The notes beneath the pieces were generated by a model. The model had not been told where the DNA came from and did no database searches. It saw nothing but the letters and a program-made list of their open reading frames with translations. The position numbers and the translations under genes were made by a program. Positions 1,011-31,044 of a stretch of DNA of 64,000 nt are shown here, in pieces; position 1 is the first letter of the stretch; every line of letters begins with the position of its first letter. Source of the stretch: an uncultured Roseobacteraceae bacterium (GTDB lineage Bacteria > Bacteroidota > Bacteroidia > Cytophagales > Flammeovirgaceae); contig CAYMYI010000001.1 in the NCBI GenBank assembly GCA_964394585.1, positions 8,713 to 72,712 of the forward strand, read 5' to 3'.

Positions 1011-2705
1011 TTACCAAAACATCCCTACTACAATAGCTGTGATAATCAAAAGGAACACAGCCAAGATACGGTAGTTTTTGTACCATGGTAAAGCCTTCAG
1101 TTCTTCCGTTTCAGCTTTGAAAATGCCCACATGCCAGGTAAGATGCTCAATTTTTTCGATGGAAGGGGCGGGCGTCGCAAGGCTCACTACTACATGGATT
1201 AGTATACAAGCCACCATAAGCAATGGCGCAGTATGCAAAAAGTGCATCTCGCTTATTGTAGGCACCATGCCATTCAGCTTAATCACAATCATAAAAACAG
1301 CGATAAGCAAACCACCAATAAGGCTAGCAATAGCACCATGCCCGTTGCCTCTTTTCCAAAATAATCCTACTAAAAATACAGCTACTACCGGTGGAGCAAT
1401 AAACCCTAGAACGAGTTGCAGGTAATCCCACAGCGAAGAAAAGTTTTCAATTTGTGGAGCCCAAGCGGCTGCTAAAATCACTAGTACTACTGTAGCAATT
1501 TGACCTGCACGTACAAGCCCTTGGCTAGTAAGGTTAGGAGCAAGTTTTGAAACAAAATCCATGGTGATTAACGTAGACGCCGAGTTTAAAGTAGCACTGA
1601 TACTCGACGACATCGCAGCGAGTAACCCGGCAATTACCAACCCTAGCAAGCCGGTTGGTAATAACTTATAGATTAACACAGGATACGTCATGTTGGGGCA
1701 ATCACTCAAATTACTACATAGCACTGCCGCACCATCTTCGCCGGTGATGTAATAATTTAATCCGCTAATATCTAAATCGGAGAAAAGTACAATAGCTACT
1801 ACCCCTGGTAACACCATGAAAAAAATCACAGGTATTTTCAATAAACCTGCAAATAGAGCGCCCCAACGACCATGATTCAAGTCTTTTGCACTCAATACAC
1901 GTTGTACCATAAACTGATTGTTTGCCCAAAAATAGAACCCAAGCAAAGGCACCCCAAATAGCAACCCTGTCCAAGGCATATGACTCCCCGTCATGGGTTC
2001 TACCAAACTAAAGACTTCATCGGGGTTTTTAGCCACTGTACCTGCTTCGTGCAAATTGGCAAGTCCTGCCATCATACCATCCCACCCGCCTACTTCGCTA
2101 AAACAGAAATAGGTGAGCACCATCGAACCGGCAATCAGCAATACTGCTTGAATAACCTCGGTGTGCACTACCGAAGAAAGTCCTCCGGGAATCGTATACG
2201 CCGCTGCGGCAAATGCAAGCATGGCAATAATTACTGCTGAGTTAAGTTCAGGAAAAATGATTTTCAGAATCAAATTACCCGCATATAGTCCAGAAGCCGT
2301 ATCGATAATCACATTCCCTACAATGGTAATAAAAGAGAAATAGTAACGAGAACGGGTATCGTATCGCCTTTCTAAGAACTCGGGCATGGTATATACTTTC
2401 GAGCGCAAATAAAACGGCAAAAAGAAAATGGCAAAAAACACCAACACTACAGCGGCCATCCACTCGTAGTTATACACTCCTAAATTAGTATTAAATGCAT
2501 CGGAAGTAAGCCCTATTAGGGTATTACTCCCTATGTTCGCGGCAAATAATGAAATGCCTACAATGGGCCAAGTCATGTTTCGCCCTGCTAAAAAGTAATC
2601 TTCAGACGATTTTTGTTTCCCTTTCGAGATTCCATACCAAATAATCCCAAAGATATACACGATGATAATCACGATATCAATGGTACTGAGGGTTACATTT
2701 TCCAT
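1011..2705 (-). CDS. Sodium:solute symporter (SSS/SGLT family)
   Basis: Long polytopic membrane ORF (about 13-14 hydrophobic helices) with SSS-like sequence throughout. It was trimmed to the ATG at 2705 (MENVTLSTIDIV...), where the first TM begins. Confidence 0.8.
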   Translation of the reverse strand: MENVTLSTIDIVIIIVYIFGIIWYGISKGKQKSSEDYFLAGRNMTWPIVGISLFAANIGSNTLIGLTSDAFNTNLGVYNYEWMAAVVLVFFAIFFLPFYLRSKVYTMPEFLERRYDTRSRYYFSFITIVGNVIIDTASGLYAGNLILKIIFPELNSAVIIAMLAFAAAAYTIPGGLSSVVHTEVIQAVLLIAGSMVLTYFCFSEVGGWDGMMAGLANLHEAGTVAKNPDEVFSLVEPMTGSHMPWTGLLFGVPLLGFYFWANNQFMVQRVLSAKDLNHGRWGALFAGLLKIPVIFFMVLPGVVAIVLFSDLDISGLNYYITGEDGAAVLCSNLSDCPNMTYPVLIYKLLPTGLLGLVIAGLLAAMSSSISATLNSASTLITMDFVSKLAPNLTSQGLVRAGQIATVVLVILAAAWAPQIENFSSLWDYLQLVLGFIAPPVVAVFLVGLFWKRGNGHGAIASLIGGLLIAVFMIVIKLNGMVPTISEMHFLHTAPLLMVACILIHVVVSLATPAPSIEKIEHLTWHVGIFKAETEELKALPWYKNYRILAVFLLIITAIVVGMFW

Positions 2706-2975
2706 ATTTACTTTAGTTAGTGAGTAGTTGTATGATTGTGTAATTTTTAATGCAAATCCGTTATAAACTTCTATAAAATTAGGAGAATTTGGCACAAAAC
2801 CGAATTATTGTATCATATTCCCATACAAGGCAAAGTGCGGCATACTTATACCTGCGTTATACACACTCTTCCATTTGCACGCATCTAATATCCTTATGTA
2901 AATTGGGATTGGATAACTTCCGACATTTTGGATCTCACATTATCAAAATACAATTTTCTCTTATCCAACATAGTT

Positions 2976-3821
2976 ATGAATTTTACCCTCGACCCTACTT
3001 TGGTACACAGCCTCGTTTTGATTGTTCTATATGCGCTGGTTTTTCTGTTTGCCCGGTATGTCCGAAGTTGGTTTTCAACATTCAAAATAGGGCATCAACT
3101 TGTACATGAAGATAATAGCGCTTTTGCCATCAGCATAGCAGGGTATTTTATAGGGATTACAGCAGTTTTTGTGGGGGCTAGTAGAGGAGCTACACAAGGG
3201 TTATTGCACGATATCATGTTAGTCTCGGCATACTCTTTAGCCGGCATCGTCGCTATGAACCTCGCCCGAATTGTAAACGATCGCATTATTCTAGAACAGT
3301 TCTCAAACACACATGAAATTATCCAACAGCGCAATATCGCTGCTGGTATCGTTCAAGGTGCTTACTACATAGCTTCTGGGCTTATTGTAGCAGGGGCTGT
3401 AAGTGGCGAATCAGGCGGGCCGCTTTCCGCCTTCGTTTTCTTTGTAGTGGGGCAACTTATACTTATCATTTTTTCGCGAATTTACATAAGCATTGTAGGG
3501 TATTCAGTACACGATGAACTTAAAACGCAAAACGTTCCCGTGGCACTCAGTTTTTCTGGAAACCTCATTGCTATGAGCTTAATTATTATGAGAGCCATTG
3601 CGGGTACTTTTGTAGGTTGGGGCGAAAGTTTTTTATATCTGGTACTCGACCTTGCCCTCATAGTCTTGTATTTGGTATTAGTTCGGCAATATTTTGACCG
3701 CCTCATTATTCCCGGTTCTAAACTACGCAAAGAATTAATTGAAGACCGAAATTTAGGGGCCGGTGCCTTGGAAATGTTTGTGGCTATTTGTTTTGGCCTT
3801 GTGATTGTATTTCTGTTTTAA
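2976..3821 (+). CDS. Membrane protein with four DUF350-like repeats
   Basis: There are four repeats of a polar-x-x-N-x-A-x-A...G...I helix unit: HEDNSAFAISIAGYFIG, QQRNIAAGIVQGAYYIASG, KTQNVPVALSFSGNLIA and EDRNLGAGALEMFVAICFG. The start was moved to the ATG at 2976 (MNFTLDP...). Confidence 0.55.
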   Translation: MNFTLDPTLVHSLVLIVLYALVFLFARYVRSWFSTFKIGHQLVHEDNSAFAISIAGYFIGITAVFVGASRGATQGLLHDIMLVSAYSLAGIVAMNLARIVNDRIILEQFSNTHEIIQQRNIAAGIVQGAYYIASGLIVAGAVSGESGGPLSAFVFFVVGQLILIIFSRIYISIVGYSVHDELKTQNVPVALSFSGNLIAMSLIIMRAIAGTFVGWGESFLYLVLDLALIVLYLVLVRQYFDRLIIPGSKLRKELIEDRNLGAGALEMFVAICFGLVIVFLF

Positions 3822-5158
3822 TGTTGAAGCAAGTAGCGAATTTTCCACCGCAACCAACGGAGCGTTTGTTTGAATAGCGCTCCCAAACGCAACGGGAAAC
3901 TAAAATGTACCCATACGAGTCCAAGTACCCCGCCCACCCAATAGCTTAGAATAGTTACAAGAGCCACTGCCCATAATTTTTGAAAAGATAGGATAACCCA
4001 TAGGTTTCCGATCACATTCAATAAAACCATACACCACACTTGAACAAAACTGCGTTCAGGGTAGTGTAAGGCTTCTAAGGCCACTCCTGAAAACCGAAAG
4101 AAAGGCGCTAGTACGGTACTCAGTGCAAGCCCCCACCAAACTGCCTGATACTCTGTTTCGGCTAACCCAAAAGACAACCCCGCCATCAGTAAGGCTGCGG
4201 GAATCGAAAATAGAAAAGTCACACCAAGGTACATCCCCCAAATTCTCCGAAAACGAAGCATTTTTTTGGGGGGCTTCACCCCATTAAATACCGATACCAA
4301 GCGAGGGTACGCATTGGCTGTCATACTGCGGATTAGCAAATCAGACCATTCGGTAAGCCGAAGTGGAAGGTGGTAAAAAGCAAGACACTCGGGCGAAGCC
4401 AAAATTCCCAGCATAAACGTATCTGATGACTTCAACAAATTAAGAGCCGTAAGGCTGCCCATGCTGTATCTACCAAAATGAAACATTTTCTTTAACGTGC
4501 CCCAGGTTGCATATCGCAATATCGATATATCGCAAAGCCCATTGTACAGCGTAATTACCGAAGCGATAAGATGCCCTAGTAAATAGAATAACACAATTTG
4601 CACTACATTAAAAGGCTGCAGTGTATGCAGCAATACAAAAAAAGTAAACGTACCAAAAACCACTAAGCGCAAGCGAAAACTAAAAAGGAATAAACGCTTG
4701 ACATTCAAGTGCCACTGCGCAAACATAAACGGGAATGAAGCAACCAGCAGCAAAGGAGCGTAGTGCCAAAAAAGGTAATAGGCATCCCTTTCGAACGGCG
4801 CACTGAGCTGAGCACCTACCAACAAGCCGCCCATCAGAAGCAACGTTACCCCTCCCCCTATCCAAAGGCTTGCCGATAGATACGGAATGCGCTTCGTTTC
4901 TTCCATGCCACTCGTGTAGCGAATCAGTGCCGATTGCACTACCCCGGTGCGTAGTAACTCTAAAAAGCTACTACCGGTAATAAAAATGCCCCATTGCCCA
5001 AAACTGACTACCGGCAACGTGTAATATAAAATCAGCAGATTGAGCAGCCCCAATAAAGCAATGCTTCCGTTGTTCCACCACGCTTGCCAATGCGGACTCC
5101 CCCACAGTGCAGCCATGCCAAAGCCCTGTTTCGTGTTTTCTGTCTCAGTTTCCTTCAT
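3818..5158 (-). CDS. Polysaccharide biosynthesis / oligosaccharide flippase-like membrane protein (MOP superfamily)
   Basis: 446-aa polytopic membrane protein with Wzx/RfbX-like organisation. Its stop overlaps the convergent DUF350 gene by 4 nt. The family call is by general resemblance only. Confidence 0.5.
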   Translation of the reverse strand: MKETETENTKQGFGMAALWGSPHWQAWWNNGSIALLGLLNLLILYYTLPVVSFGQWGIFITGSSFLELLRTGVVQSALIRYTSGMEETKRIPYLSASLWIGGGVTLLLMGGLLVGAQLSAPFERDAYYLFWHYAPLLLVASFPFMFAQWHLNVKRLFLFSFRLRLVVFGTFTFFVLLHTLQPFNVVQIVLFYLLGHLIASVITLYNGLCDISILRYATWGTLKKMFHFGRYSMGSLTALNLLKSSDTFMLGILASPECLAFYHLPLRLTEWSDLLIRSMTANAYPRLVSVFNGVKPPKKMLRFRRIWGMYLGVTFLFSIPAALLMAGLSFGLAETEYQAVWWGLALSTVLAPFFRFSGVALEALHYPERSFVQVWCMVLLNVIGNLWVILSFQKLWAVALVTILSYWVGGVLGLVWVHFSFPLRLGALFKQTLRWLRWKIRYLLQH

Positions 5159-17251: not shown

Positions 17252-18790
17252 TTAGCGTAGTATCATCAAATAGCCTTTTAGTGGGGGTAGGCCGCTTTCA
17301 AATTCTATGGTATAGAAATAAGTGCCATCGGCTAAGTTAGCACCTCCCCAATCGCTTTGATAATTGGTAGACTCAAACACAAGATTCCCCCATTGGTTGT
17401 ACACTTTTATAGTATGCCCGGCTGCTTGGTCGATGTTATCGATAATCCAAACATCGTTAAAGCCATCGGCATTGGGCGAAATCCCTGTGTGGACGTCTAA
17501 TGGTGGAATTACTCGGATAGTTACCGAATCGGTATTGGTACAGCCATCCTGATCGGTTACTTCGAGCACTACGGTATATTCTCCTTGTTCGGTGTAGCGG
17601 TTGACGGGCGTTGGGGTAATGGCAAAGCTGCTATCGCCTAAGTTCCACAGGTAGGAGGCGGCGTTCTGGTCGCTAACAGCAGAAAAGTTTACAGTTAAGG
17701 GGGCATATCCAATTAAAGGGGTTGCTTGAATTTCTGCAGGCACTACGCCCTCTTTCAGGTTCACGAAAAAAGGGACTGGTTCGCTTTCGATATCGTTTAT
17801 GGTTTGAGTTACATACAGCGTATCGGGTACTGTTTCCGGCTGGTAGATTTGCCCTGTGGTGAGCAACTCGTTCAAGCCTGCATCGGCATACCAACGTACA
17901 TTTAACCCATTGGCACTGGCAATCGGGATTGGCGTGTTTTGGCATACCACGATGGGAGAATTTATCGTTGGAGGGGCTACGGTATCAATACTAGGAATTG
18001 CGAAGGGAAACGTGATATTGCAGCCGTTGGCATCTTGCACAATAAGGGTGTAGTTACCCTCGGCGAGGTTATCAAATAACGGCTGGCTTTGAAAAGGCCC
18101 TCCATCGAGCGAGTAGGTTGTAGGAGCATCGCCCCCTTGTACTTCATCGATTTGGATACTTCCGTTCGCTGCTCCAATTAACGATGGGGTTATGGTAGTG
18201 GCACTTACACTGAACGGGCCATCTACTACGGTTTCGTTTCCATTTTTGCAGCCATCGCAATAAGTGGGTTCTATCGGCGCGACCCTTAAAGAAAAAGTTC
18301 CCTCTTCAAGATCGCTTTGTGAACCCACAATGATGTAAAACTCTTGGCGATTTTCCACACATGTTAACCCTGTGAAAAGCGCCATGCTATCGGCTGAAGC
18401 GCAGGCATCGGAACCCAAAAACCACTGCCCTACCCCCCCGCAAACGTCAGGGGTCATTAGCGCAACGTTTAATCGGGCATTGTCTTCAGGGATAATATCG
18501 ACGCGCATACCTCGGATGAAGGGCGTATCCAACGTAAAACGAAAATAAACAGTATTTTGCCAGGGATCTTCGCCTAAGCAACTCCCATTTAAAAATGTAT
18601 TTTCGGAAGTGGCTCCTACATTCGATACACTGTTCAGTTCGAGTACTTCTTGGGTGCGCACTACGCCCAAATCTGTTGCATTGCAGGGCAAGTCGTTGAT
18701 GGGAGCCTGTCCATAAACGGTAGTGGATATTATGACCGAAACGAACAGAAATAAAAACAAAATGCGAAAAGGAGTGATAGAAAATGCCAT
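17252..18790 (-). CDS. Secreted surface protein with SprB-type repeat, Ig-like and PKD domains, and a T9SS type-B (CHU_C) C-terminal sorting domain
   Basis: Signal peptide; PKD motif (YLWNLGDSS...GEYTVVLEVTDQDGC); C-terminal GISPNADGFNDVWIIDNI...YNQWGNLVF...DGTYFYTIEF...KGYLMILR, typical of the gliding-motility C-terminal domain. Confidence 0.8.
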   Translation of the reverse strand: MAFSITPFRILFLFLFVSVIISTTVYGQAPINDLPCNATDLGVVRTQEVLELNSVSNVGATSENTFLNGSCLGEDPWQNTVYFRFTLDTPFIRGMRVDIIPEDNARLNVALMTPDVCGGVGQWFLGSDACASADSMALFTGLTCVENRQEFYIIVGSQSDLEEGTFSLRVAPIEPTYCDGCKNGNETVVDGPFSVSATTITPSLIGAANGSIQIDEVQGGDAPTTYSLDGGPFQSQPLFDNLAEGNYTLIVQDANGCNITFPFAIPSIDTVAPPTINSPIVVCQNTPIPIASANGLNVRWYADAGLNELLTTGQIYQPETVPDTLYVTQTINDIESEPVPFFVNLKEGVVPAEIQATPLIGYAPLTVNFSAVSDQNAASYLWNLGDSSFAITPTPVNRYTEQGEYTVVLEVTDQDGCTNTDSVTIRVIPPLDVHTGISPNADGFNDVWIIDNIDQAAGHTIKVYNQWGNLVFESTNYQSDWGGANLADGTYFYTIEFESGLPPLKGYLMILR

Positions 18791-26937: not shown

Positions 26938-27453
26938 TTATAATTTTTGTTCAACCTTGTAGAGAATTATTCCTAAAAGACAAATAAGTGGGGTTGCAAA
27001 AAAACTAAACAGCTTGTATACCCAATAACTCCTCCAAGAAAGTTGTTCAACTTCGAACCATCCGAACGTATCTAATAAACTGTGTACTACATATAACACC
27101 ACCATCACTTTGATATATCGCTTTACAAATAAACGGTTTGGCACCACTAAAGCGAGTACAATTACATTAATAAGAAAATAAAAAAGGAAAAAAAGGCGAT
27201 GATTTACCCAGAAGGCAAAGCGCAAATTGATACCAACTTTATCAGGGCTAGCTAATGGTAATTTACCAAGCAGTACCCAAGTGTATTCGCTAAAAAAATA
27301 GCCCCAGCTCTTGGGTACTTTATCTCCAAAATAATACCCCCAAATCAACGCAATCCCCCAAACGGTTAGGGCAAAAAAAAGCTTACTATTTAGGTTTTGT
27401 TTTGTGATTTTTCCCACTTTACACCCGATAATTTTTCTACCCAAATAACCCAA
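26938..27453 (-). CDS. Exosortase F system-associated membrane protein
   Basis: Small 4-5 TM protein immediately downstream of and overlapping xrtF, as expected for the XrtF partner family. The start is uncertain: TTG at 27453 or GTG at 27417, with no ATG nearby. Confidence 0.6.
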   Translation of the reverse strand: MGYLGRKIIGCKVGKITKQNLNSKLFFALTVWGIALIWGYYFGDKVPKSWGYFFSEYTWVLLGKLPLASPDKVGINLRFAFWVNHRLFFLFYFLINVIVLALVVPNRLFVKRYIKVMVVLYVVHSLLDTFGWFEVEQLSWRSYWVYKLFSFFATPLICLLGIILYKVEQKL

Positions 27454-27956
27454 AGAATAAAAACGATTACATAAACAGCAATTTTATACGTGTATTTGTG
27501 GTTAAAATCGAAGGTACTTGGACTTTCAATATAGTTGATTCCCAATAAAATCACTCTTATGATATTAGCTATATAAATTAGTAGCAACCCGAAAAGTAAA
27601 TACCATATTTTAGTGTTGGCTTTACCCGGAAAAATGAGTAAAAAGCCGATAAATAATACCATAATTTCTAACCCGTTGCAGGCATTGCCAATACCCACAC
27701 TTTGCACCCCATCAATGTATAAAATAGTGCCACTCAGTGCGGGTTCAAGCTTATGCTGATAGCTTTCGTAATAGGAATCCACCCCCAACCAATTCAATGC
27801 GGTTGTAGCTCCTTCGCTTACTAAGTAAGTTAAAGGTAAATCAATTACTCCACTAGGTTCTAGCATCATTGAATAAACAATCTGCCAAATGACTAGTAAA
27901 CCAATACCTTTTACCAAAAACTGCTGAAGTCGTGTAAGCTGGGCAAACCATTTCAT
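27390..27956 (-). CDS. xrtF: Exosortase family protein XrtF
   Basis: 188-aa polytopic protein carrying the exosortase catalytic motifs: Cys in GNACNGLEIM, Arg in ANIIRVILLG, His in FDFNHKY. Confidence 0.8.
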   Translation of the reverse strand: MKWFAQLTRLQQFLVKGIGLLVIWQIVYSMMLEPSGVIDLPLTYLVSEGATTALNWLGVDSYYESYQHKLEPALSGTILYIDGVQSVGIGNACNGLEIMVLFIGFLLIFPGKANTKIWYLLFGLLLIYIANIIRVILLGINYIESPSTFDFNHKYTYKIAVYVIVFILWVIWVEKLSGVKWEKSQNKT

Positions 27957-27966
27957 AGTATAAATT

Positions 27967-27995
27967 AGGGGCTATTTTTTGTGAAAATAGCCCCT
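27967..27995 (-). terminator. Perfect 12-bp hairpin between the mini-ORF and xrtF (putative attenuator or partial terminator)
   Basis: AGGGGCTATTTT (27967-27978) and AAAATAGCCCCT (27984-27995) pair around a 5-nt loop. On the minus strand it is followed by AATTTATACT and then the xrtF ATG. Confidence 0.5.
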
Positions 27996-28015
27996 GATAG
28001 AATAGTGCACAATTA

Positions 28016-28198
28016 TTATTTCTTCTTACTATATTTTGCAAAAGTTCGTACACCATACAATACCCCGACCAACAACAAACCCCATAACCCATCACTTAAT
28101 GGAACGGGTAAAGGTGCCGGTGCAGGCGGAAGGGGTTGCGCTGTAAGAATTGTCGGACTAACAATCATCACAGTAATAACCAATAACTTTTTCTTCAT
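28016..28198 (-). CDS. 60-aa secreted mini-protein with a PEP-CTERM-like C-terminal tail (candidate XrtF substrate)
   Basis: MKKKLLVITVMIVSPTILTAQ (signal peptide), PLPPAPAPLPVPLSDG (Pro-rich core), LWGLLLVGVLYGV (short hydrophobic helix), RTFAKYSKKK (basic tail). It has an ATG start and ends 59 bp upstream of xrtF on the same strand. A possible TTTG-N17-TAAATTTA promoter lies at 28268-28296. Confidence 0.5.
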   Translation of the reverse strand: MKKKLLVITVMIVSPTILTAQPLPPAPAPLPVPLSDGLWGLLLVGVLYGVRTFAKYSKKK

Positions 28199-28511: not shown

Positions 28512-29675
28512 TTACACCACCTCTCCGATGTAGGTGCTGCCATAGGTTCCTACACGATCCATCTGGTGGTAGTGCTTTCCTTTCTCGATATCAAACCGAA
28601 CGCGTTCTTTCACAAATTCTGGGAAAAAGTTAATCTCTGTAGCTGCTGAACGCATTAAAATTTTAGTGCCAGGTTTACTGTTTTCTAAAATGAGTTTCCA
28701 TTCTTCCTCTAAGGCTACTGGGTTATAATGGGCGAGCCAATCTTGGTGGTCTAGCAATACATAATGCGTGTATGCATCTGGCTTTTGCTGCAAAAATCCG
28801 CTGAACGAGGTAGTATGCACGTTGATCCGATCGATGGTATCTTGAAGCGTTTCGTAGTGGTCGGCTTTCAAATATTCAGGGCAGCTTTTCTTGGCATATT
28901 TCCCCATGATGTAGAGCCTCCAAAAGTAGTTGTCATGGATGGGCAGCTCTGTGAATACATGGCGCAGGTTATCTTTTAAATAACCAGCCATGCCTTGGGG
29001 ATATTTTTGCACAATCAGGTCGCGCTGCGCACGAGGCACGCCCAACATAGCCATGGTTACATGGCGGTTCATCACCCAAATGAGCAACTTACTCATTAGC
29101 TTCGGCTCTAAACGGTCGTACACCTCTCGCTGTTCCTCAGGGGTCTGACTGTTGATGAGTGCCGTTACCAGTTTGCGCAAATCTTTGTTCGAATTGAAAT
29201 ACTGCTTGAAAAGCCATGCGAAACTGCCGGAGGTTCCTTTAAAGTAAAACGTTTTTTGGTTGCCTTTTGGGTGGAAGAAGTCAGTTACTTTCTGGTCCCA
29301 ATAGCTTTGCGCTTCTTTAGAGAGTTGCTTCCGCAAGTGCTTGGCGTACAAAGCCCCGGCACTGTCGTTAGTACCCTTCCCAAACATTTTGAAGTGATGT
29401 TTGTAGTCGCCATGGCGGATGGTAGCTTTTTTGAGTTCTAGCAAGGCATTTTGGCGGTAGTTCATATCTACACAATGGATTGCCGAAGGCTTATCGAGCG
29501 AGTAGTCGAGGGCATTGCAACCCGCACTGGTAATCATGACTACTTTGCTATCAGGAGAAAAGTCAAGCAATTGGCGATCGACGCGCGGATCTTCCCAACA
29601 GGTATTATACACCAAATTGCTCATGTGAATTTTGGTAAACAGCCGATCACGCAGCTGGTTAATTCGCTTATTCAT
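28512..29675 (-). CDS. BtaA-like DUF3419 protein (SAM-dependent 3-amino-3-carboxypropyl transferase family)
   Basis: N-terminal YNTCWEDPRVDRQLL...VVMITSAGCNALDY is the family hallmark. 387 aa. Confidence 0.75.
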   Translation of the reverse strand: MNKRINQLRDRLFTKIHMSNLVYNTCWEDPRVDRQLLDFSPDSKVVMITSAGCNALDYSLDKPSAIHCVDMNYRQNALLELKKATIRHGDYKHHFKMFGKGTNDSAGALYAKHLRKQLSKEAQSYWDQKVTDFFHPKGNQKTFYFKGTSGSFAWLFKQYFNSNKDLRKLVTALINSQTPEEQREVYDRLEPKLMSKLLIWVMNRHVTMAMLGVPRAQRDLIVQKYPQGMAGYLKDNLRHVFTELPIHDNYFWRLYIMGKYAKKSCPEYLKADHYETLQDTIDRINVHTTSFSGFLQQKPDAYTHYVLLDHQDWLAHYNPVALEEEWKLILENSKPGTKILMRSAATEINFFPEFVKERVRFDIEKGKHYHQMDRVGTYGSTYIGEVV

Positions 29676-29871: not shown

Positions 29872-31044
29872 ATGTGCGTTATGGCAACCCGTGTGTATTT
29901 ACAAGAGCAATTAGCATCGTTTCCTTGGTCTGCAACTCCCTTCTCTTCTTGTTTACAGAAGTTTTATGCTCCCCTCACTCAAATAGGGACGACACATTAC
30001 ATACAGAACTCTTCTCAATCGGTAGGTTTACTACCCGTAGAAGGGTATGCTATCCCTTTTAGTTATGCACCTTTCCCTCCTGCTCCGCAAAACTCATATC
30101 TTCTATCATTTCTTGCTCAATACTTCGATTACGCCCAAGAAGAAGTGCTGCAGAACGACAAGTACAGTGCATTGCAAAGGAACTTAGCGCGTTTTGCCGT
30201 AGGGGGTGTCCGGAAACTTTTTGAATGGTGGGGAATGGACAATGTGGTATTTATTAACAATCAACTTCTTTCTACCAATTTATATCCTGAAATTTCGCAG
30301 GAAGCTTGGTCTGAAGCGATCCGCGCTCTTCAAGCACAATTTCCCCACCGTGCTTTGGTGTTTCGCACACTCAACGAAATCACGAACGAACCGCTTATTC
30401 AGTTTTTAGCCGATTCGCACGGTGCCCACCGCATTACCTGCCGGCAAGTCTACATCTTACCGAAAGCATACGATGCCTACCGACGGAAACGTGCCTTCAT
30501 CCGCGACCAAAAACTGTGGGAAAAGGCCAACCGATTCCATTGGGTAAAAAAAGAAGTGTTTAGCGAAGAAGAACTCGAAACAATCTTACAGTATTACCAT
30601 ACCTTATATATAGATAAGTATTCTAAATTTAACCCGATTTATACGAAAGAAATGATTCGGCAAAGTGCCGCTAGTGGTTTGCTACATTATTACTTATTGC
30701 TCGAAAACGATACCCTCGCCTTGAAAGCCGTGCAAGCCGTTGCAAAAAGTAGCACCGAAATCACTACTCCTTTCATCGGGTACGACCCCAACGAGCCCCA
30801 AAACGCAGGGTTATATCGGTTCATGAACCTTCAACTCATGCAGCTCGCCCACGCCGAAGGGCTGCGTCTTAATATGAGCAGTGGGGCGGCAGAATTCAAG
30901 CGCCAACGCGGTGGGGAAGCTACGTTTGACAACCACATGGTCATTTGTCATCACCTCGCTCCAAGCAAACAAAAGCTTTGGCAGCTTATTGCCACAATTT
31001 CTGATAAATTTGTGCGTCCTACGTTCCAAAAAATGAAACTATGA
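29872..31044 (+). CDS. FemAB/CelD-like GNAT-fold acyl/aminoacyl transferase (family uncertain)
   Basis: C-terminal GLYRFMNLQLMQLAHAEGLRLNMSSGAAEFKRQRGGEA resembles the FemAB-like/DUF482 and CelD-type GNAT motif. The start could be ATG 29872 or 29881. Confidence 0.5.
   Translation: MCVMATRVYLQEQLASFPWSATPFSSCLQKFYAPLTQIGTTHYIQNSSQSVGLLPVEGYAIPFSYAPFPPAPQNSYLLSFLAQYFDYAQEEVLQNDKYSALQRNLARFAVGGVRKLFEWWGMDNVVFINNQLLSTNLYPEISQEAWSEAIRALQAQFPHRALVFRTLNEITNEPLIQFLADSHGAHRITCRQVYILPKAYDAYRRKRAFIRDQKLWEKANRFHWVKKEVFSEEELETILQYYHTLYIDKYSKFNPIYTKEMIRQSAASGLLHYYLLLENDTLALKAVQAVAKSSTEITTPFIGYDPNEPQNAGLYRFMNLQLMQLAHAEGLRLNMSSGAAEFKRQRGGEATFDNHMVICHHLAPSKQKLWQLIATISDKFVRPTFQKMKL

Follow-up and report, generated by a model that had tools for sequence, protein, structure and literature searches.

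A divergent XrtX/PID-CTERM cassette with a 60-residue mini-protein as the probable substrate of a small exosortase

Between positions 26,938 and 28,198 of the window (the whole stretch of 64,000 nucleotides that was analysed), three genes follow one another on the reverse strand. The most upstream of them, at 28016..28198 (-), starts with ATG and encodes a mini-protein of 60 aa followed by a stop codon. A gap of 59 nt separates its end from the gene of a 188-aa exosortase (27390..27956 (-)), whose 3' end is in turn overlapped by the gene of a partner membrane protein of 159 aa (26938..27417 (-)). For the partner gene, the GTG at 27417 is a more probable start than the TTG at 27453 taken by the mechanical ORF. 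A sequence-only reading of the same DNA had described a four-part ORF upstream of a Cys/Arg/His exosortase, with 59 bp between them and an overlapping membrane protein further downstream, and all of these elements are present as it described them.

The mini-protein, translated as MKKKLLVITVMIVSPTILTAQPLPPAPAPLPVPLSDGLWGLLLVGVLYGVRTFAKYSKKK in agreement between the ORF list and the sequence, can be divided into five parts. Residues 1-20 (MKKK / LLVITVMIVSPTIL / TA; 28139..28198 (-)) have the features of an N-terminal signal peptide as judged by hydropathy and inspection, with MKKK followed by a hydrophobic h-region. Cleavage by signal peptidase I is predicted between A20 and Q21, which is far more likely than the cut after Q21 assumed in the sequence-only reading, because the latter would leave a Gln at -1 followed by a Pro at +1, both of which are disfavoured, and because the former agrees with the Q-rule for signal-peptide cleavage in Bacteroidota (PMC5837995, PMC10653852). 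In the homologues, the h-region likewise ends in A|Q or A|A. The Pro-rich core at residues 21-31 (QPLPPAPAPLP; 28106..28138 (-)) makes up most of the predicted mature peptide, and such a core is found in all homologues with variable length. It is followed by the signature motif V-P-L-S-D-G (residues 32-37; 28088..28105 (-)), a variant of the canonical [IV]-P-I-D-G-G in which P33 and G37 are invariant in the mini-protein alignment. A short, Gly-rich hydrophobic helix comes next (residues 38-50, LWGLLLVGVLYGV; 28049..28087 (-)), with G45 and G49 almost invariant throughout the family. With about 13-14 residues, the hydrophobic segment falls below the length that a 19-residue hydropathy window can register. 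Its length and Gly-rich character correct the sequence-only reading in a second detail, while the layout itself stood. The protein ends in a basic cluster predicted to be cytoplasmic (residues 51-60, RTFAKYSKKK; 28019..28048 (-)), and a K/R cluster occupies the equivalent place in all homologues. Residues 32-60 thus form the extreme C-terminus and combine a motif, a 13-residue hydrophobic stretch and a basic cluster, as in the tripartite sorting signals defined previously (10.1101/2023.06.07.544157). In the basic cluster, Lys predominates over Arg, and the hydrophobic segment is short.

Among the subfamily models, the exosortase is best matched by NF046081 (XrtX) with 166.7 bits, compared with 82.4 bits for TIGR04128 (XrtF) and 55.5 bits for XrtY. 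The XrtX score lies 3.3 bits under the curated cut-off of 170, close to that of the orthologue at locus L002 (169.0 bits), and the other enzymes of the XrtX clade score 171-214 bits with this model. The XrtF score falls short of the cut-off of 90, and true XrtF enzymes reach 143-233 bits. Both superfamily models are passed (TIGR04178 with 57.9 bits at a cut-off of 23, PF09721 with 41.4 bits at a cut-off of 25.7). The putative catalytic residues Cys93, Arg134 and His153 are invariant in the enzyme alignment. Hydropathy predicts four TM segments, and the positive-inside rule places the three residues at periplasmic ends of these segments or in a periplasmic loop. Among named sequences, an 'exosortase X' of Flammeovirga sp. 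OC4 is the nearest, with 49% identity, and no solved structure was found among the relatives of the enzyme. The surroundings of the locus likewise point to a member of the Bacteroidota near the Flammeovirga-like Cytophagales. In a neighbour-joining tree of 80 enzymes, built without bootstrap, XrtF is monophyletic (10/10) and sister to the XrtX clade, in which the lineage of the window enzyme forms the basal branch. By these sequence comparisons, the enzyme is of the XrtX type and not the XrtF that the sequence-only reading had named.

The partner membrane protein appears to be related to the XrtX-associated membrane protein but divergent from it. It has no direct match in NCBIfam or Pfam, and its closest orthologues score weakly with the XrtX partner model NF046082 (18.1 and 13.2 bits), for which typical XrtX partners, at 33-50 bits, likewise remain under the cut-off of 75. 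Profile-profile comparison with hhalign aligned the partners of the window clade to the XrtX partners over 96 columns with a probability of 78% and an E value of 1.9e-5, compared with a probability of only 6% for the XrtF partners. The assignment as an XrtF-associated protein in the sequence-only reading also failed in the direct search, where the partner gave no match to TIGR04127 at E<=1, a model with which true XrtF partners score 143-160 bits. The two partner families are themselves homologous, as hhalign gave a probability of 94% for XrtF partners against XrtX partners.

The XrtX enzyme, its PID-CTERM target and its partner have already been modelled as NF046081, NF046080 and NF046082, with the target also covered by Pfam PF28310, although our literature search found no paper naming or describing the XrtX/PID-CTERM system. 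The premise of the sequence-only reading that the enzyme subfamily had no assigned target signal is accurate for XrtF (PMC10936215, PMC12188702), whereas for the XrtX type found here the target is already curated. Against the PID_CTERM model NF046080, the mini-protein scores 15.5 bits (E 0.012) through the helix only (profile positions 6-21), which is under the cut-off of 26, and a Pfam search of the mini-protein gave no PID_CTERM match; PF28310 is known here from precomputed tags on homologues. An HMM built from canonical tails alone, with the window clade left out, gave the mini-protein 14.2 bits, higher than all 2000 tail shuffles, and it was the single match among the 1151 ORFs of the window. 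The signature P-I-D(-G-G) is replaced by P-L-S-D-G with a one-residue shift, in which P and the final G align. In a census of 147 representatives whose motif could be recognised, it was PIDGG in 116, PLDGG in 19, PVDGG in nine, PIDNG in two and PFDGG in one, with no instance of PLSDG; VPLSDG is common to the mini-proteins of the window, L002 and L006. The mini-gene is encoded next to xrtX, as the description of PID-CTERM proteins has it. On this evidence, we consider the tail, with its VPLSDG motif, short Gly-rich helix and Lys-rich end, to be a diverged version of the PID-CTERM signal as curated (PIDGG).

Family-wide, PID-CTERM tails are found almost only on mini-proteins. A tail-only profile searched against 1.84 billion proteins retrieved 2092 representative clusters at E<=1e-3, and among its best 150 matches, 149 were proteins of 45-112 aa that end in the tail. 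Proteins with PF28310, about 70 aa long, form at least 4868 clusters. No larger PID-CTERM cargo was present in any locus examined. In some homologues, the core is reduced to about 6-10 residues (for example, AQDPDV ahead of PIDGG).

Given that a protein search with the 60-aa query matched only itself, conservation of the mini-ORF was demonstrated through its gene neighbourhood. An ORF of like layout and 59-97 aa lies directly upstream of the enzyme in 63 of 76 XrtX-class locus entries, and within about 1.5 kb in three further entries; nine loci had no mini-ORF in the retrieved DNA, one of them with its upstream DNA truncated by the contig end. The absence of a conserved small ORF at this position, which the sequence-only reading had named as grounds for rejecting its proposal, was therefore not observed. 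Positional orthologues occur in dozens of species on both sides of the basal split of XrtX. The mini-proteins at loci L001, L002, L005 and L006 are orthologous and have a common layout, and the one at L005 carries a precomputed Pfam PID_CTERM match. The same inspection of true XrtF loci, searched to about 4 kb, found a mini-ORF of such layout in none of 10, while the motif-free filter used there recovered 50 of 59 mini-ORFs at XrtX loci as a positive control; the conserved upstream ORF that the sequence-only reading expected at xrtF loci is found at XrtX loci instead. Between the window and its two closest orthologues, core and tail show a pN/pS of 0.28-0.34, and the two orthologues differ from each other with a pN/pS of 0.12, with synonymous sites nearly saturated in these comparisons (pS 0.7-0.9). 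The mini-ORF is confirmed as a real gene under purifying selection and not a chance ORF. It is the sole tail-bearing ORF in the 64-kb window.

The gap between the mini-gene and xrtX contains a perfect 12-bp stem-loop at 27967..27995 (-), with a free energy of -17.4 kcal/mol (z = -3.5), whose core GGCTATTTTC..AAAATAGCC is invariant across the window, L002 and L006. Of the 38 loci in which the two genes lie 20 nt or more apart, 30 carry a hairpin with a T-run. In the other 21 of 59 loci, the gap is shorter than 20 nt or the genes overlap, and they are tightly coupled without a hairpin. The stem-loop is terminator- or attenuator-like and is possibly an operator palindrome. The Bacteroidota -7 motif TAnnTTTG is absent upstream of both the mini-ORF and xrtX, a sigma-70-type promoter scan being uninformative for Bacteroidota, and an Rfam search of the window gave zero matches.

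The XrtX/PID-CTERM system and the locus share the three-gene order and a homologous enzyme and target, with a partner that is probably homologous as well. The targets are also alike in having a signal peptide, a Pro-rich core, a motif, a Gly-rich helix and a Lys/Arg tail, with the G...YG.[KR] spacing conserved. They differ in the motif, which reads V-P-L-S-D-G-L-W in the clade of the window, L002 and L006 compared with [IV]-P-I-D-G-G-[IV]-S, and in a CWPPPC pair that the main clade has and the window clade lacks. The mature peptide of the main clade, APPPPPxGxPxCWPPPC, shows strong conservation. In addition, the window proteins all score under the cut-offs, and the enzyme comes from the lineage that branches first among XrtX.

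Taken together, we think it likely, largely by analogy, that the mini-protein is a dedicated Sec-exported pre-peptide cleaved by XrtX at the periplasmic face of the membrane to give a Pro-rich peptide of about 13-16 residues. The locus would then be a self-contained three-gene XrtX cassette, running from the mini pre-peptide gene through xrtX to the partner membrane protein. The 60-aa product would be exported through Sec and lose its signal peptide between A20 and Q21, after which the N-terminal Gln21 would probably cyclise to pyroglutamate. The short Gly-rich helix would hold the remaining 40-mer in the inner membrane, the Lys/Arg tail lying in the cytoplasm and VPLSDG at the periplasmic membrane boundary. 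XrtX, with Cys93, Arg134 and His153 predicted on the same periplasmic face as the motif, would recognise VPLSDG and cut there, removing helix and tail and leaving pGlu-PLPPAPAPLPVP... as the product. An acyl-enzyme intermediate would then probably hand the peptide on to an acceptor, either lipid or glycan, as suggested by the homologous archaeosortase A (ArtA), where cleavage is coupled to lipid attachment (PMC7157517, 10.1101/2023.06.07.544157); the alternative is release. The hairpin between the two genes would keep the substrate transcript above that of the enzyme. Our literature search turned up no experimental work on XrtX or PID-CTERM proteins, so the proposed processing rests on analogy. 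The central suggestion of the sequence-only reading, a dedicated substrate beside its own exosortase, is borne out by the adjacency in 63 of 76 entries, the conserved tripartite tail and the location of motif and triad on one predicted face, and the small Pro-rich remainder it expected after both cleavages agrees with the 13-16 residues predicted here. Counting against this reading are the scores of all three proteins under the NCBIfam cut-offs, the motif PLSDG in place of PIDGG, the 21 of 59 loci where mini-gene and xrtX are coupled without a hairpin, and the nine XrtX-class loci whose retrieved DNA holds no mini-ORF. The cores of 6-10 residues seen in some homologues are odd for a 'cargo' and are compatible with a non-substrate role as well.

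A different role would follow if the mini-protein were never cleaved and remained with the XrtX-partner complex as a small single-pass subunit, a pseudo-substrate or a regulator, with the motif used for docking. This seems rather unlikely to us. The very short core in many homologues, such as AQDPDV, leaves little to 'sort', the 21 of 59 loci with gaps under 20 nt or an overlap with xrtX are arranged as for stoichiometric subunits, and a larger PID-CTERM cargo is absent from all loci examined and from the best 150 tail matches. However, sortase-type substrates are characterised by a cleavable N-terminal signal peptide together with a tripartite tail at the C-terminus, the hairpins at 30 of the 38 loci with a spacer point to much higher expression of the mini-gene than of the enzyme, the strong conservation of the main-clade mature peptide argues for a function of its own, and the short, Gly/Ala-rich hydrophobic segment would make a poor permanent anchor. 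Less probable still is that the mini-protein acts as both donor and acceptor, with XrtX joining units head-to-tail in the manner of a pilin sortase, or loading them onto another envelope molecule, to build a Pro-rich polymer or primer. A 'cargo' that is essentially a mere Pro-rich linker and a substrate gene apparently expressed above the enzyme, as the hairpins indicate, would suit such a product; Cys/Arg/His exosortases are suspected of transpeptidation, and the gene of a giant T9SS surface protein immediately upstream in 10 of 59 loci hints at a role in surface structures. Against polymerisation, pyroglutamate at Q21, if formed as the Q-rule (PMC5837995) would allow, blocks the N-terminal amine in the window protein, and the core sequences differ widely among clades.

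That the mini-protein is the missing cognate substrate of XrtF is refuted in the form first proposed for this locus. XrtF and XrtX are sister families with homologous partners (hhalign 94%), the window enzyme does reach 82.4 bits with the XrtF model, and XrtF targets are unknown (PMC10936215, PMC12188702), but the XrtX model is ahead by 84 bits with the XrtF cut-off of 90 out of reach, the partner does not match TIGR04127, and none of 10 XrtF loci (enzymes of 143-233 bits) has such an ORF nearby under a filter that recovers 50 of 59 in the control. We give hardly any credence to a spurious ORF or an ordinary small membrane protein with no link to the exosortase. AT-rich DNA often holds short ORFs, the direct protein search returned the query only, and no promoter motif was identified; these points are outweighed by purifying selection, positional conservation throughout the XrtX radiation and thousands of homologues with a curated Pfam domain.

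The preferred reading, a dedicated pre-peptide processed by XrtX, can be placed among the known systems. The XrtF system of Flavobacteriia (TIGR04128 with TIGR04127), which F. johnsoniae needs to form biofilms and colonise surfaces (PMC10936215), resembles the locus in its sister exosortase of about 180 aa and in a downstream partner gene that overlaps it and whose product is homologous by profile comparison, and differs in having no adjacent mini-ORF at any of 10 loci and in models that the window enzyme and partner fail. PEP-CTERM with exosortase A (XrtA, EpsH) shares the tripartite C-terminal signal and a polytopic membrane enzyme with Cys, Arg and His. There, one enzyme serves many proteins per genome, often large and Ser/Thr-rich, usually in EPS loci, whereas the relation in the window looks one-to-one with a mini-protein as the target, and no EPS genes lie near the cassette in the window. 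A further difference is size, XrtX being far shorter than XrtA; of the 241 positions of the EpsH model TIGR02602, the 188-aa window enzyme aligns only to 109-235. Archaeosortase A, acting on PGF-CTERM proteins in Haloferax volcanii, belongs to the homologous enzyme class and is the experimental precedent for removal of a C-terminal helix coupled to lipid attachment (PMC7157517), but it is archaeal, its substrates are large S-layer glycoproteins, and lipid attachment by XrtX would be an analogy to it. In the pairing of one enzyme with one target in tandem, the cassette fits a dedicated sorting system as Haft defines it, exemplified by JDVT-CTERM/MrtJ (10.1101/2023.06.07.544157). The enzymes of JDVT-CTERM-type systems are, by contrast, Rce1-like glutamic intramembrane proteases unrelated to exosortases, and their motifs contain Cys.

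For the window, these results amount to a correction, from the long-sought XrtF substrate to a divergent XrtX/PID-CTERM cassette. Because all three proteins score just or well below the HMM cut-offs, automatic annotation would probably label them as generic or hypothetical. The survey pairs an exosortase with a dedicated, nearly cargo-free substrate in thousands of Bacteroidota lineages. To our knowledge, no cleavage site has been mapped and no acceptor is known for any exosortase, so a tethered substrate of 40 residues with an enzyme of 188 residues would be about the smallest model in which to address the transpeptidase question. More tentatively, and with the odds against it, XrtX systems may be peptide-transfer machines and not protein sorters, ligating a Pro-rich peptide of 6-25 residues to a lipid, glycan or other envelope component or polymerising it. 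If so, a RiPP-like modification of the envelope would be widespread in Bacteroidota, with a CWPPPC loop in the main-clade peptide, and in the deeper clades peptide transfer may be tied functionally to the giant T9SS surface protein encoded upstream. It would also hint at the type of non-adjacent target used by the orphan sister enzyme XrtF, whose chemistry is suggested to be similar to that of XrtX by the homologous partner and the sister-clade position. The search for that target is narrowed by the 10 XrtF loci, at which it is not an adjacent mini-ORF.

A 60-codon ORF with an ATG start (28016..28198(-)), present in the raw sequence and among the mechanically called ORFs, encodes a mini-protein, MKKKLLVITVMIVSPTILTAQPLPPAPAPLPVPLSDGLWGLLLVGVLYGVRTFAKYSKKK; the ORF of a 188-aa exosortase (27390..27956(-)) follows it after a gap of 59 nt. 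The exosortase matches the exosortase/archaeosortase signatures (TIGR04178, 57.9 bits; PF09721, 41.4 bits), and its residues Cys93, Arg134, and His153 are invariant among its aligned relatives. The ORF of a partner membrane protein on the same strand overlaps the 3' end of the exosortase gene and ends at 26938. The sequence-only reading was therefore correct at the sequence level as to the mini-ORF and its neighbors, the Cys/Arg/His motifs of the enzyme, and the overlapping downstream partner.

Its assignment of the enzyme to the XrtF family, however, did not hold. The exosortase scores 166.7 bits against the NCBIfam model for exosortase X (XrtX, NF046081; cut-off 170) and only 82.4 bits against the XrtF model (TIGR04128; cut-off 90), and its closest named relative is "exosortase X [Flammeovirga sp. 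OC4]" with 49% identity. For comparison, 80 loci were fetched from species-representative genomes and 30 of their enzymes were scanned with HMMs, by which 20 were scored as XrtX and ten as XrtF (143–233 bits for XrtF versus 106–122 bits for XrtX). In a neighbor-joining tree of 80 enzymes, built with no bootstrap, the ten XrtF proteins are monophyletic and all others form a sister clade, the first split of which separates the window, L002, L006, and the Flammeovirga locus L001 (hereafter the window clade) from the remaining XrtX. The XrtX cut-off of 170 bits narrowly shuts out the window clade, which scores 165–169 bits.

The partner points in the same direction. It has no match of its own in NCBIfam or Pfam, and its nearest orthologues score 18.1 and 13.2 bits against NF046082 (XrtX-associated membrane protein), for which typical XrtX partners score 33–50 bits. 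In a profile-profile comparison, the window-clade partners matched the XrtX partners with an hhalign probability of 78% (E 1.9e-5) versus 6% for the XrtF partners, the two partner families being homologous to each other (94%). Comparison with the L002 orthologue, which has an ATG start, makes GTG 27417 the most likely start codon of the partner. The curated cut-off of NF046082 is 75 bits; if it governs naming, most XrtX partners, including that of the window, would be left unnamed.

Because a direct protein search with the mini-protein returned the query alone, we used synteny to examine its conservation. Each of the three nearest enzyme relatives has a small gene directly upstream in the same layout; the mini-proteins of L002 and L006 read ...AMAQAPPPPPPPVPLSDGLWGL..AGALYGVR..YK.KKK and that of Flammeovirga ...WAGPMLPPTPAGVPIDDGGYILLASGAIYGIYKFKSKRKKK, and the mini-protein of L005 (...ATAQPDLPEDVPIDGGASILAAAGLAYGAKKIIDKRKENKTED) carries a precomputed match to Pfam PF28310 (PID_CTERM). 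In a scripted scan of all 86 locus entries, 63 (59 distinct sequences) had a mini-ORF of 59–97 aa immediately before the enzyme gene, and three more had one within approximately 1.5 kb; one entry retains the remnant of a disrupted mini-ORF, and another is truncated by a contig end. All 63 belong to the XrtX clade; the ten XrtF loci contain no mini-ORF of this type. A motif-free filter for a signal-like N-terminus and a hydrophobic and basic C-terminus passed nothing in the ten XrtF loci, while it recovered 50 of the 59 mini-ORFs in the XrtX loci with just three other ORFs. The proposal of an XrtF substrate is rejected on HMM scores, partner match, and synteny. Botryobacter ruber (L034) encodes two PID-tail mini-ORFs, at 2129–2389(-) and 2834–3148(-), on the opposite strand about 1–2 kb from xrtX. 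In Pontibacter ummariensis (L013), a single such mini-ORF (3215–3490(+)) lies about 500 nt upstream of xrtX; cores of the Pontibacter type are long, Gly- and Asn-rich stretches. The disrupted mini-ORF of L055, upstream of 3779, keeps the C-terminal remnant alone (...KLYKNQQEKNTL).

The mini-ORF codes for a protein and is under purifying selection. The pN/pS of its core and tail is 0.28–0.34 between the window and the two closest orthologues and 0.12 between L002 and L006, with synonymous sites close to saturation (pS 0.7–0.9). Selection and conservation together exclude a spurious ORF.

The tail of the mini-protein matches NCBIfam NF046080 (PID_CTERM) over residues 37–52 with 15.5 bits (cut-off 26). 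An HMM built from canonical PIDGG tails alone, with the window clade omitted, gave 14.2 bits, versus 7.6 bits for the best of 2000 composition-matched tail shuffles, and ranked the mini-protein top among 1151 ORFs of the window (E 0.0019); the full tail HMM gave it 42.5 bits and matched nothing else in the window's 64 kb, where the runner-up scored 3.3. Within the window clade, the window, L002, and L006 have V-P-L-S-D-G-L-W where the canonical motif is [IV]-P-I-D-G-G-[IV]-S; the Pro and Gly of the motif are invariant in the alignment and the G...YG spacing of the helix is nearly so. By these scores and alignments, the tail is a divergent PID-CTERM, and the cassette of mini-gene, xrtX, and partner gene is a divergent, basal-clade XrtX/PID-CTERM member with a variant motif and all three components sub-threshold; it falls below two curated score thresholds and lacks the literal PID motif. 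The accession numbers NF046080, NF046081, and NF046082 run consecutively; curators evidently treated target domain, enzyme, and partner as parts of a single system. We found no paper that uses "PID-CTERM", or "XrtX" as the name of an exosortase; the system is known to the curators of NCBIfam and Pfam but apparently undescribed in the literature searched.

Across the family, at least 4868 clusters (90% identity) were retrieved with the mini-protein profile; the top 120 are all 69–111 aa, PF28310-tagged, and, where the source gives a name, "hypothetical protein". A 36-position tail-only profile, run exhaustively on 1.84 billion representatives, found 2092 proteins at E<=1e-3. Among the best 150 of these, 149 are 45–112 aa long (median 74.5) and match at their extreme C-terminus. 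As far as these 150 go, then, PID-CTERM tails belong overwhelmingly to mini-proteins. The one large protein, the Lys-rich P0162 (351 aa), contains KVAGGVALAAGAVYGAKKLHDKKKKK as an internal repeat in three copies, each of which resembles the PID-CTERM helix and basic cluster; it has neither a PID motif nor a signal peptide. This one-to-one pattern of consecutive genes corresponds to Haft's dedicated sorting system. A striking feature is a dedicated substrate nearly without cargo, a minimal and tractable model for exosortase chemistry: cores range from about six residues (AQDPDV) to about 50, and that of the main XrtX clade, APPPPPxGxPxCWPPPC, is highly conserved. The predicted mature peptide of this clade, APPPPPxGxPxCWPPPC[IV]P (e.g., L020, L035, and proteins P0012–P0131 from the profile search), has a Cys pair, spaced four apart, immediately ahead of PIDGG, which could form a disulfide loop or a modification site. 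Such a CxxxxC pair just before the motif occurs in 36 of 147 diverse representatives; window-clade mini-proteins have no Cys.

For two reasons, cleavage by signal peptidase I is much more plausible at A20|Q21 than after Q21. Gln is disfavored at −1 and Pro at +1. In addition, an N-terminal Gln, cyclized to pyroglutamate, is exposed in most Sec/SPI substrates of Bacteroidota (PMC5837995, PMC10653852). The C-terminal hydrophobic stretch is just about 13–14 residues long and Gly-rich. Hydropathy and the positive-inside rule place both termini of XrtX in the cytoplasm and the Cys/Arg/His triad on the periplasmic side, with Cys93 where TM2 begins, Arg134 where TM3 ends, and His153 in the next loop. 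With its Lys/Arg tail inside, the mini-protein would present VPLSDG at the periplasmic face of XrtX. By analogy with archaeosortase A (ArtA), XrtX is expected to cut in or close to this motif. For ArtA, removal of the PGF-CTERM helix is coupled to lipid attachment (PMC7157517), and transpeptidase chemistry is suspected for the exosortase Cys/Arg/His triad. The cut would leave pGlu-PLPPAPAPLPVP..., about 13–16 residues, joined to some acceptor or released. The neighbors of the cassette in the window (an aminotransferase, a TraB/GumN protein, a DUF3419 protein, a 390-aa protein, a LysE transporter, and others) gave no pointer to an acceptor. The mini-protein might itself be both donor and acceptor, as a polymer or primer, which we consider improbable.

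The spacing of the two genes bears on a further alternative, in which the mini-protein is a non-cleaved subunit or pseudo-substrate. The 59-nt gap contains a perfect 12-bp stem-loop (27967–27995(-); −17.4 kcal/mol, z = −3.5), flagged as terminator-like. The gap is at least 20 nt in 38 of the 59 distinct loci, and 30 of these 38 have a hairpin with a T-run behind it, in many cases of canonical form (e.g., CCCCGCAGCAGCGGGGTTTTTT). Such hairpins probably act by attenuation, holding the substrate transcript above that of the enzyme. The tiny size that cores can have and the tight, translational coupling of mini-gene and xrtX in the other 21 loci would suit a subunit, but the signal peptide, the conserved mature peptide, and the hairpins speak against it, making a non-cleaved subunit unlikely, though less so than a polymer or primer; we favor a cleaved substrate. 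The stem core GGCTATTTTC..(A)AAAATAGCC is invariant in the window, L002 (~3998–4030), and L006 (~2706–2742), although the flanks are not alignable and synonymous sites are saturated between these genomes. The constraint is thus on sequence, not on structure alone, and a palindrome bound by a protein or regulator, as well as a terminator, is possible.

Upstream of the cassette are a DUF3419-family gene (28512–29675(-); 393.8 bits) and, divergent from it, an ORF of 390 aa that matches neither Pfam nor NCBIfam models (29872–31044(+)); neither is conserved beside XrtX in other loci. Ten of the 59 distinct XrtX loci (L001, L005, L006, L008, L009, L016, L018, L019, L022, and L028) encode a large same-strand protein immediately upstream of the mini-gene, ending 2–192 nt before it; such a T9SS-type gene is absent from this position in the window. 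All ten lie in deeper, non-CWPPPC clades, including L006, the 61%-identical relative. The complete proteins are 894–1229 aa, and most others run past the locus edge. Nine of the ten have a T9SS Por_Secre_tail sorting domain, six above the Pfam gathering score, and PKD or Ig_7 domains are often present. The XrtX product may be functionally linked with a T9SS surface protein. About 9 kb from the cassette, the window encodes a protein of 512 aa (17252–18790(-)) that combines PKD domains with a CHU_C signal for type IX secretion, which supports an origin of the window from a member of Bacteroidota with T9SS.
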